DNA of 64,000 nt, taken from NCBI GenBank assembly GCA_043820025.1, contig JBDRED010000021.1:14902-78901 (forward strand), read 5' to 3'. Positions 6,560 to 11,071 of the stretch are shown here, piece after piece; within the stretch, counting starts at the first letter, position 1, and the number at the start of each line of letters is the position of its first letter. Under the pieces are notes generated by a model that was given only the letters and a program-made list of their open reading frames with translations, was not told the DNA's origin and did not search any database. The stretch is from Elusimicrobiota bacterium. Lineage in GTDB: Bacteria; RUG730; JBDRED01. Both the position numbers and the translations under genes were made by a program.

Positions 6560-8659
6560 TTATACTATCTGCGAAAAATCCGCAATTCTCGAAAATGTGT
6601 TTGTAAGATGAGTTAACAAAACCAGCCTGTTATTCCTTACAGATTCATCCTTATCCATAATTAAGACATTGTCAAAGAAAGTATCCAGCGCAGGCTTTAA
6701 CTTCGCTAATAATTGAAGAAAAGAAACATATTTTTTCTTGCCTTGAAGTTTGTCATCAAGAACAACCTGCTGCAGGCTGTTCCATAAATTCTTTTCCTCC
6801 TGCATAGCAAATAAATTTTCATCTATTTTTTTGTCCGCAAAATTAAATCCTTTGTCCTTTGCCTGCCTGACAATATTATGCGCGCGTTTATATAGAGCAA
6901 TGAGCTGTTCAAAATCTTTGTCTTTTCTCATATCGTGAATAGCGCTCAACTTTAAATAATCGTCGTGAACAAGTATACCGGACTCTCTTTCGCTGATTGA
7001 ACGAACTTCGTCAACGCTAAACTGTTTATCTATCAGCCAATTTTCAAATCTTTTTTTATAAAAATCATTTAATGCGCTTACCGCTTCCTCTATACTTTCT
7101 TTTGAAAACTTATTTTCAAAAAGCGCTGAAACATTTTTTGCTAAATCAAAAAATGACAAATCCCATTTTTTATCCAAACATATTTCAAATACTCCATAAA
7201 ACTGGCGTCTCATGCCATAAGGGTCGTAAGAGCCTTTTGGCCTGTGTCCTGTAAGAAAGGTTGAGACTACATTATCAATCTTATCGGCTATACTGACTAT
7301 TGCAGACTCGTTTGACCGGGGCAATTTATCTCCCGCAGTTTTTGGCAGATAATTCTCCTCTATCGCGCTCGCTGTTAATTCGTCTTCGCCATTATCTTGA
7401 GCATAAACGCGCCCCATAACACCCTGCAATTCCGGAAATTCCTGAACCATTTCAGTTAAAAGATCTGTCTTTGCAAGCAAGGCAATACGGCTGATCCTGC
7501 TGTTATCCGCATCAATTTTTAGAATATTTACAAGCATCTCTGATATTTTTTGTATTCTATTTACCTTATCATAAACAGAACCCAGCTGTTCTTGATATAC
7601 AACTTTTTTTAAATCATCCACTCTATCAATAAGTTTTTTCTTTCTATCCTGCATATAAAAAAACTCCGCGTCCTTAAGCCTCGCGGTAAGAACCTTTTCA
7701 TAACCCTGACAAACTATTTTTTCATATTTTGTTCTTCCGTTTTTTACGCCGATAAAATGCGGCGTTAATTTTCCATCCTTTGTTTCAAGAGCAAAGAATT
7801 TCTGATGATGCTTTAATACAGTGACGATTACTTCTGCGGGAAGCTGCAGAAAACGTTTGTCAAACGAACCTAAAATAGTAAACGGATATTCGGTAAGAGC
7901 TGAAACCTCGTCTAGTAAATCCTCATGAATTATAGGAATGCCGTATTTTTTATTAATGCCTTTAAACCCGTTAATAACCATTTCCTTTCTCTTGTTCCGG
8001 TCAATAACAACGCTGTTTGCCAGCAATTTTTTATGATAATCATCTCTGTTTTTGACATTAATTTTCTTAGCCCTGAAACCGCTCATACCATATGTTATTT
8101 TGCCTGATTTTATTCCGGCGCATTCAAATGACAATGCCTTATTTCCAAACATACCTAAAAGCCATCTGACAGGCCGCGAAAATCTGGCCTTAGACTTATT
8201 CCAAACCATTGTTTTTGGAAAGTTAAGCGTTATTATAAACTCGTTAAATATCTTTGGCAGTATTTTTTCAGTTTTCTCGGATTTACCCACGATCTCAGCT
8301 GTTATATATTCGCCTTTTGACGTTTCTTTAAATTTTAAATCCTTTACCGCAACGCCGCATTTCTCAGCAAATCCTTTAAGCGCGTTTGTAGGCTTCCCAT
8401 TTTCGTCATACGCTATTCTTTTCGGCGGGCCAATGATTTCTTCCTTGGACACTCTTTGAGCCTCGTCTACATTAAGAGCTTCAATTACTATTCTGCACGG
8501 CGTTATAAAAACATTTATATCGTCATAAGTAATGCTGTTATTATCCATAATATTTTTAAAAAGTGATTTTGCGTTATCTCCGGCAGTCCGCTGAGCTGAA
8601 AGAGGAAGCTCCTCAACGCCTATTTCAAATATTAATTCTTTTTTCATATATTCTCCCAA
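6560..8659 (-). CDS. glyS: Glycyl-tRNA synthetase beta subunit
   Basis: MKKELIFEIGVEELPLSAQRT... typical GlyS N-terminus; ~695 aa; likely ATG at ~8647 preceded by GGGAGA. Confidence 0.9.
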   Translation of the reverse strand: MGEYMKKELIFEIGVEELPLSAQRTAGDNAKSLFKNIMDNNSITYDDINVFITPCRIVIEALNVDEAQRVSKEEIIGPPKRIAYDENGKPTNALKGFAEKCGVAVKDLKFKETSKGEYITAEIVGKSEKTEKILPKIFNEFIITLNFPKTMVWNKSKARFSRPVRWLLGMFGNKALSFECAGIKSGKITYGMSGFRAKKINVKNRDDYHKKLLANSVVIDRNKRKEMVINGFKGINKKYGIPIIHEDLLDEVSALTEYPFTILGSFDKRFLQLPAEVIVTVLKHHQKFFALETKDGKLTPHFIGVKNGRTKYEKIVCQGYEKVLTARLKDAEFFYMQDRKKKLIDRVDDLKKVVYQEQLGSVYDKVNRIQKISEMLVNILKIDADNSRISRIALLAKTDLLTEMVQEFPELQGVMGRVYAQDNGEDELTASAIEENYLPKTAGDKLPRSNESAIVSIADKIDNVVSTFLTGHRPKGSYDPYGMRRQFYGVFEICLDKKWDLSFFDLAKNVSALFENKFSKESIEEAVSALNDFYKKRFENWLIDKQFSVDEVRSISERESGILVHDDYLKLSAIHDMRKDKDFEQLIALYKRAHNIVRQAKDKGFNFADKKIDENLFAMQEEKNLWNSLQQVVLDDKLQGKKKYVSFLQLLAKLKPALDTFFDNVLIMDKDESVRNNRLVLLTHLTNTFSRIADFSQIV

Positions 8660-8764
8660 GAATAAGTTTAATGAGTTATTGAGTTCTCTCCTTCTCCTTC
8701 CCCTTATTTCCTCTTCATCTCTCTCTCTTCATCTCATCTCTCTTTCTTTCCTCTCTCTTTCTTT

Positions 8765-8800
8765 CCTCTCCCCTATGGGGAGAGGATTAAGGTGAGGGGG
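8765..8800 (+). repeat. REP-like 36-bp element copy A (core palindrome cctctcccc-tat-ggggagagg), preceded by polypyrimidine tract 8700..8764
   Basis: cctctcccctatggggagaggattaaggtgaggggg; a direct copy occurs at 9246..9281 and an inverted copy at 9168..9203. Confidence 0.8.
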
Positions 8801-9155
8801 CTTCATCTCTTCTTTTGAAAATAGCCCTCTCAATAACTTGACAAACACCTTCAATATTTTTCAAAATATCCCTATCACTAAAACGTAGAATCTCTATACC
8901 CTGATTATTTAATATATTCGTTCTCTTCGTATCATATATTATATTTTTTTCTTCATAGTGCTGACCGCCATCTGCTTCTATTGCTAATTTATATTTTGAA
9001 GAATAAAAATCTAATATGTACTTTTGGACCGGAACCTGCCTTTTAAATTTTACTCCTGATAATTGCCTATTTCGCAACACTCTCCAAAGCTTTTTCTCTG
9101 TATCTGTCTGCTTTTTTCTTAATGCACGACTTCTCTCGATATTTTTTCGTTTCAT
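8787..9155 (-). CDS. DUF559 (Vsr-like/restriction-endonuclease-fold) domain protein
   Basis: ALRKKQTDTEKKLWRVLRNRQLSGVKFKRQVPVQKYILDFYSSKYKLAIEADGGQHY...ILRFSDRDI matches the DUF559 pattern (LW..LR....G.KFRRQ.P...YI.DF.C....L.IE.DG..H). Confidence 0.85.
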   Translation of the reverse strand: MKRKNIERSRALRKKQTDTEKKLWRVLRNRQLSGVKFKRQVPVQKYILDFYSSKYKLAIEADGGQHYEEKNIIYDTKRTNILNNQGIEILRFSDRDILKNIEGVCQVIERAIFKRRDEAPSP

Positions 9156-9167
9156 AATTCATATTCA

Positions 9168-9203
9168 CCCCCTCACCCTAACCCTCTCCCCACAGGGGAG
9201 AGG
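9168..9203 (-). repeat. REP-like element copy B, inverted relative to A (33/36 identical to revcomp of A)
   Basis: ccccctcaccctaaccctctccccacaggggagagg vs revcomp(A) ccccctcaccttaatcctctccccataggggagagg. Confidence 0.8.
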
Positions 9204-9216
9204 GAAATAATAAACA

Positions 9217-9298
9217 CTCTTCATCTCTTTCCTCTCTCTTTCTTTCCTCTCCCCTATGGGGAGAGGATTAAGGTGAGGGGGCTTCATCTCTTCTTTTG
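9217..9298 (+). repeat. Direct repeat of the polypyrimidine+core+tail unit (copy C, core 9246..9281)
   Basis: ctcttcatctctttcctctctctttctttcctctcccctatggggagaggattaaggtgagggggcttcatctcttcttttg nearly identical to 8720..8817. Confidence 0.8.
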
Positions 9299-9311
9299 TA
9301 GAGAAAACTCT

Positions 9312-10187
9312 TTACCTAACATACGCTTCTGCAACCTTTTTTGCCATATTACGAACGCGCGCGATAAAATGTGTGCGCTCAGTTACGCTTATCACTCCTC
9401 TTGCCTGAAGCATATTAAACAAGTGCGACGCTTTTAAAACATAATCATACGCAGGGCCTATAAGGTTTTTTTCAATCAGCCTCAATGCTTCTTTTTCAGA
9501 AGAATCAAACGATATTCTTAAAAATGCGGTATCAGCCTCTTCAAAATTATATTTTGAGAAATCTTTTTCATCTCTTAAATGAACATCGCCATAAGTAAGC
9601 GGATATTTTTTACCATCAATATTCTGCGTTGTCCATAAAATATCAAATACGCTGTCTTTATTCTGCCTATACATCGCTATTCGCTCAAGCCCATATGTAA
9701 TTTCAACAGTGATTGGATCCAGTTCAATGCCGCCCATCTGCTGAAAATATGTAAACTGCGTGATTTCCATGCCATCCAGCCATACCTCCCAGCCAAGCCC
9801 CCAGGCTCCAAGCGTAGGAGATTCCCAATCATCCTCAACAAACCTTACATCATGTTTTTTTAGGTCTATGCCTATACTCTCAAGGCTCTGCAAATACAAT
9901 GATTGAATATCCTTTGGCGCAGGTTTTATCACAACCTGATATTGATAATAATGCTGAAGCCTGTTTGGATTTTCTCCATATCTTCCGTCAGTAGGCCTGC
10001 GCGACGGTTCAACATAAGCCGCTGCCCACGGCGCAGGGCCCAAGCATCGAAAAAATGTGGCAGGATTAAATGTGCCTGCGCCCTTTTCAATGTCATACGG
10101 CTGCATTATTGCGCATCCTTTTTTCGCCCAGTATTTTTCTAAACTTAAAATCATATCTTGAAATGTCATAATTCTCCTTTTTATCAT
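9312..10187 (-). CDS. glyQ: Glycyl-tRNA synthetase alpha subunit
   Basis: [45 protein letters not shown]...[10 protein letters not shown] is a strong GlyQ match; real start probably MTFQD at ~10169. Confidence 0.9.
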
Positions 10188-10245: not shown

Positions 10246-11007
10246 TTAAAATATATTTGCTTTTAATTTTTTCTCAATATAATATTCCATAGTTTTTTTT
10301 GTTAAACACATTGTGTCATTAAAACATTTTTTTGAGCATTCTGCCAAACACTTTTTTATGCTGTCAAATGATCCGCTTTCAACAATACTATTTACGCAAT
10401 CAACCGCTTCTCTTCCAATGCTCAGTTCATTCCTGTTTCCCATCCGGCTTAAACAAGAAAAGCATATTATCCCGCCCGCATGCGGCGAAACAAATATTTT
10501 TTCCGCGTCATTTGTCAGCTGTTTTTTACATTGGGTGCATTCGTCCAACTCAAATGAATATCCCAATAGATGCAAAAATTTAAACCAAAACCAAATCACT
10601 ATTTTCTCAGGATCACCGGAATCTGAAATACCTGTCAATGTATCCTTAATTAAATCAAAAAGTCCGCCATCCTCATTGCTCGCATCATGAATCATATTAT
10701 TAATAATTTCAATTACCATTGACGCAGCCATGAATCTGTCAATATCTTTACGAATATTATATAAAGAATTTTCAAGCTTAGCGCCGGTCAAAATATGATT
10801 ATGCCCAAACGACGGCCTATAAAGCGTAACTTCGTGAATAGAAAACAGATCCAGATTAGAACCATACTTATGCGATGTTTTATTTATTCCTTTTACAACA
10901 CACCTTGTTCTGCCTAAACTTTTTGTAAAAAGGTGCACTATTCTATCGCGTTCTTTTACATTGTATGACTTAATAATTATTGCGTTTGTCGATATATATC
11001 TTGACAT
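10246..11007 (-). CDS. recO: DNA repair protein RecO
   Basis: N-terminal OB-fold region (NAIIIKSYNVKERDRIVHLFTKSLGRTRCVVKG) and C-terminal CxxC...CxxC zinc motif (CTQCKK...CFSC). Confidence 0.7.
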   Translation of the reverse strand: MSRYISTNAIIIKSYNVKERDRIVHLFTKSLGRTRCVVKGINKTSHKYGSNLDLFSIHEVTLYRPSFGHNHILTGAKLENSLYNIRKDIDRFMAASMVIEIINNMIHDASNEDGGLFDLIKDTLTGISDSGDPEKIVIWFWFKFLHLLGYSFELDECTQCKKQLTNDAEKIFVSPHAGGIICFSCLSRMGNRNELSIGREAVDCVNSIVESGSFDSIKKCLAECSKKCFNDTMCLTKKTMEYYIEKKLKANIF

Positions 11008-11029
11008 TCCCCTTCCCCCCGCATAAGCT

Positions 11030-11065
11030 GAACCAAGCCGGCCCCTTTCCCCGCAAGGGAGAGGG
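11030..11065. repeat. Degenerate 4th copy of REP-like palindromic element
   Basis: ccctttccccgcaagggagaggg resembles ccctctccccacaggggagaggg. Confidence 0.45.
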
Positions 11066-11071
11066 AATTTT

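Follow-up and report, generated by a model that had tools for sequence, protein, structure and literature searches.

A DUF559 nuclease gene bracketed by inverted BoxC repeats in the glyQ-glyS junction of an Elusimicrobiota bacterium

How does a small nuclease gene framed by inverted hairpin repeats come to lie between the genes for the two subunits of glycyl-tRNA synthetase? The question is raised by a 64,000-nucleotide stretch of an Elusimicrobiota bacterium (assembly GCA_043820025.1, contig JBDRED010000021.1, positions 14,902 to 78,901 of the forward strand), here called the window, in whose own coordinates all positions are given. An earlier note made from the letters of this DNA had described a 122-residue DUF559 gene between glyQ and glyS, and Pfam calls on all three genes agree; it had also likened the arrangement to a miniature mobile element, a comparison that holds and can be generalised, the order repeat, DUF559 gene, inverted repeat being found in dozens of unrelated contexts. 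The reading favoured here, with a probability of roughly 0.6, is that the locus is a complete gene-carrying BoxC-repeat element with the leftover 3' end of a second copy (9226-9298) upstream of it, and that the DUF559 protein is the cognate nuclease of the BoxC repeat.

The repeats that bound the gene have a known identity. The 36-nt inverted core that was first noticed (8765-8800 against 9168-9203, complementary at 33 of 36 positions) is real and extends to 39-nt arms, 8762-8800 and 9168-9206, that are 90% complementary; the left arm forms a DNA hairpin of -11.7 kcal/mol (z -3.9). The central palindrome CCTCTCCCCnnnGGGGAGAGG, also singled out in the earlier note, is present in the window in three exact copies and one copy with 2 mismatches (11044-11064), where 0 are expected from 100 shuffles. 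The left repeat displays the three-block motif CCCTC(T/G)CCCC - loop - GGGGAGAGGG - loop - GGGTGAGGGG, and in the form CCCTCTCCCCTGTGGGGAGAGGGTTAGGGTGAGGGG it is identical at 34 of 36 positions to the E. coli copy TMECO no. 9, CCCTCGCCCCTCTGGGGAGAGGGTTAGGGTGAGGGG. Judged by its sequence, the repeat of the window is the BoxC/PIT/TM intrastrand-triplex motif and not a new repeat. This family, named first BoxC, later PIT and then TM, was reportedly described earlier by Bergler (1992), Bachellier (1999) and Hoyne and Maher (2000). According to Holder et al. (2015; PMC4666352), E. coli MG1655 has 23 BoxC copies and more than 260 genomes carry the family; the copies are always intergenic and their loci hypervariable, single-stranded DNA (ssDNA) of the E. 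coli BoxC sequence folds in vitro into an intrastrand triplex that is stable, no promoter or terminator activity was found and no function assigned, and remnants of transposases or integrases were never seen with the repeat. The terminal repeats of the window resemble BoxC in the motif itself (pyrimidine block, loop, purine block, loop, mirror G-box), in intergenic placement, in occurring as inverted pairs and in being widespread; however, BoxC was described as an orphan repeat without a protein of its own, whereas in this case a nuclease gene lies between two inverted copies and forms one conserved unit with them.

That this unit is general is seen from its recurrence in other genomes. DUF559 homologues with 57-69% identity are found in Zixibacteria, Omnitrophota, Nitrospirota, Thermodesulfobacteriota and others, and the called genes of many of them take in translated repeat at their two ends, e.g. 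C-terminal "...PPHLNPLPKGERK" and "...PSPQSSPLRGEE" and N-terminal "SPLPQGERAEGEG". Scanning a genome collection with the single protein gave six distant relatives only; scanning metagenomes with an alignment gave 80 loci. Both repeats stand in their canonical places, with the left motif directly ahead of the start codon and the inverted one on the stop codon or shortly after it, at 34 of the 45 loci of the closer set (52-66% identity, window included), the other 11 mostly having one repeat or being cut by a contig end. The left motif of the units reads CCCTCTCCCCnnnGGGGAGAGGGTTAGGGTGAGGGGG and the right motif is the inverted form CCCCCTCACCTYAATCCTCTCCCCnnnGGGGAGAGGA; when distant relatives are included the left and right G-boxes are present in 64/87 and 68/87 loci, respectively. 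Units measure 421-501 bp between the outer hairpin edges (median 437; about 445 bp, 8762-9206, in the window), and sequence conservation ends abruptly at these edges. The left G-box (GAGGGGG) lies 1-7 nt before the start in about one third of the loci. It is complementary to the right box, from which the conserved PSP at the C-terminus of the DUF559 protein is translated. Distant relatives (42-50% identity, high GC) keep the blocks, but their second loop, between purine block and G-box, contains a further GC hairpin to the left and to the right of the gene (L056, L059, L061, L062, L064, L070-L080); the second loop of the motif tolerates an insertion of 15-20 nt, as the loop of a triplex would.

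Among 47 loci examined there are 33 distinct flank contexts. The neighbours are co-oriented with the unit in 26/33 cases upstream and 25/31 downstream, the gap to the neighbour is often 1-27 nt on either side, and another unit splits the large subunit of methylmalonyl-CoA mutase from its B12-binding subunit. Because the 33 contexts are spread across phyla and the conserved ends are sharp, the unit must have moved many times. Besides the units, the genomes that have them show scattered solo copies and gene-less pairs; 221 kb of flanking sequence contains 39 extra copies, as against 1 in shuffled sequence. Among arrangements without the gene, right-left doublets such as that at 9168-9281 of the window are the most frequent (10 cases); there is also a form of about 50 nt with one hairpin between two boxes; and at two metagenomic loci, L012 and L101, gene-less left-26/28 nt-right pairs adjoin DUF559 units, with spacers that resemble fused 5' and 3' gene ends. 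The evidence of movement thus consists of many contexts, sharp ends, deletion derivatives and absence of the unit from relatives.

The repeats are under selection of their own, far stronger than that on synonymous sites: their pairwise identity, a value inflated by the way copies were chosen (only those matching the consensus at 78% or more were taken), is 0.91-0.92 over 27 fixed positions, compared to 0.44 at codon position 3, which is saturated. Conservation of the right repeat does not derive from coding constraint, since among homologues it is read in different frames or, as in the window, interrupted by the stop. Furthermore, a G to A change in the purine block at position 8, 9 or 10 goes with C to T in the pyrimidine block and with G to A at the mirrored position of the G-box (Fisher p 1e-6, 2e-7 and 4e-18 at positions 8, 9 and 10 for 131 distinct copies, which are not phylogenetically independent, and with position 10 largely equivalent to the difference between left and right repeats). 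These coordinated C.G*G to T.A*A changes at positions 8-10 fit the mirror relation (triplex potential), and the three blocks co-vary as those of a putative triplex or mirror repeat would.

The E. coli member of the protein family bears the traces of the same unit. ycjD is the sole DUF559 gene annotated in the K-12 stretch examined; BoxC no. 9 (CCCTCGCCCCTCTGGGGAGAGGGTTAGGGTGAGGGG) lies 168 nt downstream of it, and its coding end (..RSPSP and the stop) falls in a right end that is degenerate and includes the same flank as is seen after other right ends of K-12. Between the ycjD stop and BoxC no. 9 (L110 5190-5420, the ycjD-fabI spacer) the last ~45 nt of ycjD are present again as a partial duplicate; this parallels the 17-nt duplicate of the DUF559 3' end in the window. 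E. coli ycjD is a degenerate version of the unit, with a decayed right end, a nearby BoxC and no left repeat. A 64-nt K-12 copy of the repeat matches all 5,426 complete E. coli genomes, at a median of 19 places per genome, and 4/5 of the inverted BoxC pairs of K-12 have the form left-16/27 nt-right with a conserved spacer. The layout of these K-12 pairs is that of the gene-less pairs at L012 and L101. The earlier note had foreseen that the 36-mer might prove to be a ubiquitous REP family unconnected to DUF559: it does belong to a widespread and known family, BoxC/PIT/TM, but one that is tightly tied to this DUF559 subfamily. No paper linking DUF559 or ycjD to the BoxC/triplex repeat was found in open-access PMC and bioRxiv, and while repeat and protein family are each known, the link between them appears to be unreported.

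In the window the unit is an insertion into the glyQ/glyS junction, in operon orientation, because in relatives with GlyQ 75% and 73% identical glyQ and glyS overlap by 8 nt and hold no repeat between them. The insertion proposed in the earlier note is thereby upheld, and the site is empty in relatives: neither the DUF559 gene nor the repeat was found at the glyQ loci of the compared relatives, although these, at 73-79% protein identity, are too distant to define the target sequence. The C-terminus of GlyQ in the window is 3-6 residues shorter than that of the relatives, and neither intron nor intein is present at the DUF559 locus. The closest relative (GlyQ 79%) keeps the synteny ybeY-CNNM-CNNM-recO-glyQ and has no glyS after glyQ; instead (L087 4001-5997) glyQ is followed by a gene for a 207-residue membrane protein and then by a DUF2062 gene. 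Separation of glyQ and glyS is tolerated in this clade, to judge from this relative, in which the two do not adjoin. In other relatives (L089 2437-3917, L090) toxin-antitoxin-like genes (Gp49/HTH, PemK toxin) lie directly upstream of glyQ. Small selfish cassettes seem to accumulate around glyQ, and the unit of the window is probably a passenger inside the glyQS operon.

The encoded protein is an intact member of its family, matching PF04480 (DUF559) at 123.8 bits (cut-off 20.6, E 3.7e-36) with no other Pfam match beyond MTES_1575. It is not the YcjD equivalog, since it scores 89 bits against the NCBIfam PRK09767 cut-off of 218. All 25/25 invariant residues of the subfamily are present, among them D49, E60, D62 and H66, invariant in 39 homologues, which by analogy are the putative catalytic residues. 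Sequence comparison relates the protein to the solved structures 3HRL (NGO0050; E 3e-26) and 3R3P (the catalytic domain of I-Bth0305I; E 0.0035), and these two are also the top Foldseek matches of an AlphaFold 2 model (pLDDT 85), 3HRL with E 1.4e-6 (TM 0.84, target-normalised) and 3R3P with E 2e-5; Vsr (1VSR/1CW0) is matched with probability 0.97-0.98. The model thus indicates a Vsr-type fold, to which Vsr itself is a more remote relative than are 3HRL and 3R3P. The DUF559 family comprises 9,166 clusters at 50% identity (E up to 1e-10). Some long representatives (P0243, P0251 and others), of 300-1200 residues, have the DUF559 domain internally or at the C-terminus, one with three DUF559 stretches; they may be fusions made by read-through from upstream host genes over the repeat, units in tandem or genuine multidomain proteins. 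Membership in a defence system was considered and rejected: PADLOC gave only weak partial matches (DpdF, a methyl-directed restriction enzyme, a homing endonuclease), and the gene has no defence neighbours. GC content of the DUF559 coding region is 0.325, already at or below the host level of 0.372, which speaks against frequent movement.

The features of the locus are collected below; recO, glyQ, the DUF559 reading frame and glyS follow one another in that order, all on the minus strand.

Features of the glyQ-glyS locus and its surroundings (window coordinates)
Feature	Position	Strand	Remarks
Possible degenerate solo hairpin, then G-rich box	11043..11067	-	weak; directly upstream of recO start
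recO	10246-11007	-	upstream of glyQ
glyQ (glycyl-tRNA synthetase alpha)	9312..10187	-	Pfam PF02091 tRNA-synt_2e, E 3e-145
17-nt duplicate (remnant) of DUF559 coding 3' end	9282..9298	-	inside 73-nt direct repeat
Extra BoxC copy, right-end orientation (G-box complement, then hairpin)	9243..9281	-	nhmmer repeat profile E 5.5e-13
Spacer, 36 nt, purine-rich, between extra right-type copy and left repeat	9207..9242	-	
Left terminal repeat TTCCCTCTCCCCTGTGGGGAGAGGGTTAGGGTGAGGGGG, BoxC/TM type A motif	9168..9206	-	10-bp hairpin, TTA loop, mirror-repeat G-box
DUF559 gene (YcjD-like, Vsr-fold PD-(D/E)XK nuclease, predicted), 122 residues, intact	8787..9155	-	Pfam PF04480
Right terminal repeat (inverted BoxC)	8762..8800	-	profile E 4.7e-13; hairpin -11.2 kcal/mol, z -3.6
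Purine-rich tract between right repeat and glyS	8676..8761	-	~91% purine on sense strand
glyS (glycyl-tRNA synthetase beta)	6560..8647 (alternative start 8659)	-	Pfam PF02092, E 1.7e-183

Read in the sense direction, the glyQ-glyS spacer of 664 nt contains, after the glyQ stop and 13 nt, the 17-nt DUF559 3' end, the right-type repeat and its purine tail, and then the left repeat, the DUF559 gene, the right repeat over its stop, a purine tract of ~85 nt and glyS. The right repeat covers the last DUF559 codons (..APSP) and the TAA stop, and the G-box of the left repeat probably serves as the ribosome-binding site of the gene; glyS, with its ATG at 8647, has GGGAGAA just ahead. (The NCBI call of glyQ has 285 residues and starts at 10169; the GlyQ and DUF559 proteins match deposited proteins of an Elusimicrobiota metagenome-assembled genome at 100%.) Read-through transcription from glyQ is the simplest expectation, because the spacer has neither promoter-like nor terminator-like sites on the sense strand and no T-run after either terminal hairpin; the few matches on the plus strand are antisense to all genes, and an intrinsic terminator or a promoter in the spacer was accordingly discarded.

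Upstream of the gene, the extra copy (9243-9281) and the left repeat together make a doublet able to form a single long hairpin, the DNA fold of 9160-9300 having -39 kcal/mol (z -9.4). No Rfam family reaches its gathering score in 8500-9500; the best matches, to microRNA-precursor models of plants and animals, arise artefactually from the doublet hairpin with its perfect stem (114 nt, 9166-9283), and a known RNA family was rejected. The extra copy is held in an exact direct repeat of 73 nt, 8745-8817 being equal to 9226-9298, whose upstream copy sits just after the glyQ stop and which includes the last 17 nt of the gene at one end and the first 17 nt of the 8676-8761 tract at the other; tblastn also detects the DUF559 remnant, at 9315-9271. 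The earlier note had placed a direct repeat with identical leader and tail at 8720-8817 and 9217-9298; 73 nt of it are exact, while the distal polypyrimidine parts are only 79-82% alike. This repeat could go back to a tandem copy or to an integration through recombination; recombination between its two copies would reduce the locus to a solo right end with a 17-nt gene remnant. As to the purine-rich tracts, those at 8676-8764 and 9207-9255 have internal GAAAGAGAG-type repeats, the long tail after the right repeat is not general at other loci, and homopurine/homopyrimidine runs of at least 25 nt occur within the window at the DUF559 locus only.

A degenerate copy had also been suspected near 11030..11065. 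The match with 2 mismatches is there, but it is weak, its repeat-profile E in nhmmer being 0.07-0.16 and its fold no better than that of shuffles, and in place of a bona fide element it is kept as a possible one only. The spacer between CNNM and recO (64 nt, 11012-11067) has the degenerate hairpin CCCTCTCCCTTGCGGGGAAAGG and the G-rich box GGGGGGAAGGGG right before the recO ATG; CNNM and recO abut in the closest relative, without such a spacer. Hairpin and box may be a decayed solo left end that is now the ribosome-binding site of recO.

On the favoured reading the DUF559 protein would recognise BoxC (hairpin plus G-box) when folded or extruded and would nick or cut it at that place. BoxC copies would then arise, move and be lost through break-induced recombination or through a single-strand mechanism; the same breaks would also drive occasional transfer of the gene-carrying unit. 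Of the gene itself a mostly single master copy would be kept by vertical inheritance, as RAYT is with REP and SsnA with NTS. In the window it would be read through from the glyQ promoter, with the left G-box as its ribosome-binding site and glyS having its own. The mode of spread of the BoxC copies and of the unit, and co-transcription across glyQ-glyS, are inferred here.

A number of observations weigh against this reading. Association of gene and repeat is one-way, i.e. nearly every gene of the subfamily has repeats and most repeats are without the gene: a BoxC lies beside a DUF559 gene in 1/23 of the E. coli K-12 copies and in 3/72 copies of a motif-first sample of viral contigs, whose gene-less majority rules out a one-to-one association. 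A recognisable left repeat was not found at E. coli ycjD, and the window has no dispersed copies beyond this locus (3 full copies here and one weak solo hairpin). The choice of copies and their shared ancestry, given above with the identity and covariation values, count here as well. Target-site duplications were not found, the longest k-mer shared across the junctions averaging 2.75 nt as compared to 2.83 +/- 0.13 in re-paired controls (n=36), and the window has no second copy of the DUF559 gene. Active mobility may be rare or extinct, because syntenic copies diverge in step with their flanks (0.66-0.87 vs 0.70-0.90 nucleotide identity; five syntenic groups). Nor do identical proteins prove recent transposition: P0041 is found in one context in many samples, and the sole alternative context of P0029, L108, may represent another copy in the genome or else a chimera that the assembly made at the repeat. 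Finally, binding or cleavage of BoxC by any DUF559 protein is something that we infer. L108 and L101 have an identical DUF559 unit, and the sequence downstream of it changes to another context precisely where the right hairpin has its outer edge. A classical transposon was rejected, there being no transposase reading frame inside the 445-bp unit and no target-site duplication. Of the mobile reading of the earlier note the recurrent architecture therefore stands; present mobility is doubtful, in view of the missing target-site duplications, the missing second copy and the vertical descent of syntenic copies.

The absence of target-site duplications would also be expected of a free-standing homing endonuclease. 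In that case the BoxC pairs would predate the gene, and the DUF559 enzyme would cut an empty left-spacer-right pair and be copied in by repair, the repeats acting as homology arms. The similarity in sequence and fold to the I-Bth0305I catalytic domain, the weak PADLOC match to a homing endonuclease, and the gene-less left-spacer-right pairs of E. coli and the metagenomic loci, which could be empty sites, favour this. Homing endonuclease genes usually decay after fixation; the syntenic copies, however, are old and intact. The site in relatives is an overlapping glyQ/glyS junction without a BoxC pair, the abutment of left G-box and start together with the PSP encoded by the right box suggests that gene and repeats evolved as one unit, and the spacers at L012 and L101, looking like fused remnants of gene ends, weakly suggest deletion derivatives rather than virgin targets. 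Homing is thus an unlikely account of the locus.

The same old and intact copies bear on another explanation, in which a domesticated nuclease of the Ssn type serves its host by cutting single-stranded or extruded BoxC, and so controls incoming DNA or recombination or resolves triplex or hairpin obstacles, gene and repeats being now immobile. The intact reading frame is kept vertically in at least five syntenic groups, there is usually one gene to many repeats, as in E. coli, Ssn/NTS provides a precedent, and BoxC single strands form stable triplexes in vitro at loci that are hypervariable (PMC4666352). Immobility is difficult to reconcile with 33 contexts across phyla with sharp conserved ends and with gene-less derivatives that cluster beside the unit; the explanation overlaps with the element reading, from which it differs mainly on who benefits, and as a separate account it seems improbable.

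A more doubtful proposal still is that the inverted motifs are cis-regulatory packaging of a potentially toxic nuclease gene, e.g. with box pairing that hides the ribosome-binding site, and that their likeness to BoxC has no meaning for the protein. The proximity of the left G-box to the start in about one third of the loci and its complementarity to the right box fit such control, as do the terminal hairpins without T-runs and the spacer without sense-strand terminator-like sites. It leaves unexplained the dispersed gene-less copies with the three-block motif, and the three-way covariation includes the mirror block, which base pairing alone does not need; moreover, purine-motif triplexes are not formed in RNA (PMC4666352). 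Chance similarity or an assembly artefact, to which the metagenomic origin of the window, with repeats that can mis-join, and the context switch at L108 might point, can be dismissed, with 0 core-palindrome matches expected by chance, the same architecture recurring over dozens of independent assemblies as well as finished E. coli genomes, and a deposited 81-kb contig that encodes the identical DUF559 and GlyQ.

The gene-carrying element is best read, by analogy, as a repeat-plus-cognate-nuclease system comparable to REP/RAYT and NTS/Ssn, with which it shares the one-way pattern of a gene that has repeats and repeats that mostly lack the gene. As with REP/REPIN-RAYT, a usually single, vertically inherited gene is flanked by an inverted, dispersed hairpin repeat without target-site duplications, and gene-less BoxC doublets resemble REPINs and BIMEs. 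However, RAYT is an HUH/Y1 (IS200/IS605-type) transposase, whereas the DUF559 protein is a Vsr-fold PD-(D/E)XK nuclease and not of the HUH/Y1 kind; BoxC has a third, mirror block with triplex potential; and the unit itself occurs in many contexts across phyla. Ssn is a small GIY-YIG nuclease of a single domain, and its gene has the enzyme's own hairpin targets on either side, a layout likened by its authors to insertion sequences and REP/RAYT (PMC11893778). Its NTS (SRM) repeats are, like those of the BoxC unit, hairpins of 20-50 nt with an oriented non-palindromic extension, dispersed and found across phyla (PMC11893778). GIY-YIG and DUF559 nevertheless belong to different superfamilies and have different repeats, and ssDNA cleavage is demonstrated for Ssn, whereas DUF559 is known here from sequence and model. 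The fold is shared with EDxHD/I-Bth0305I (3R3P), Vsr and NGO0050 (3HRL), with a detectable sequence relationship for 3HRL and 3R3P, and in I-Bth0305I it serves selfish, site-specific DNA cutting. The DUF559 gene differs from those of homing endonucleases in lying outside any intron or intein, in encoding no added DNA-binding domain and in being flanked by inverted repeats; we know of no classical homing endonuclease gene that is so flanked. Insertion sequences and miniature inverted-repeat transposable elements are alike in their terminal inverted repeats, one small gene, gene-less derivatives of ~100 nt and many contexts, but the BoxC-DUF559 unit has no known transposase fold and no target-site duplication, and measures only ~440 bp.

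The unit of BoxC, DUF559 gene and inverted BoxC ties together two orphans, a repeat family known since 1992 and a large nuclease family that includes E. coli YcjD. YcjD-like DUF559 proteins may be, though we put this at somewhat below an even chance, the missing cognate proteins of BoxC/PIT/TM; they would then constitute a third, independently evolved system of a nuclease with its own repeat, the first with a recognition element that forms an intrastrand triplex, and the 440-bp unit would be its master copy. If so, the hypervariability at BoxC loci would be the footprint of the DUF559 enzyme. For annotation, translated repeats explain the frequent spurious N- and C-terminal extensions of the "PSPxPLPxGERG" type on DUF559 gene calls. 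Should the enzyme recognise the motif as a folded single strand, it could become a practical tool, a site-specific ssDNA nuclease or a structure-specific one, like Ssn before it.

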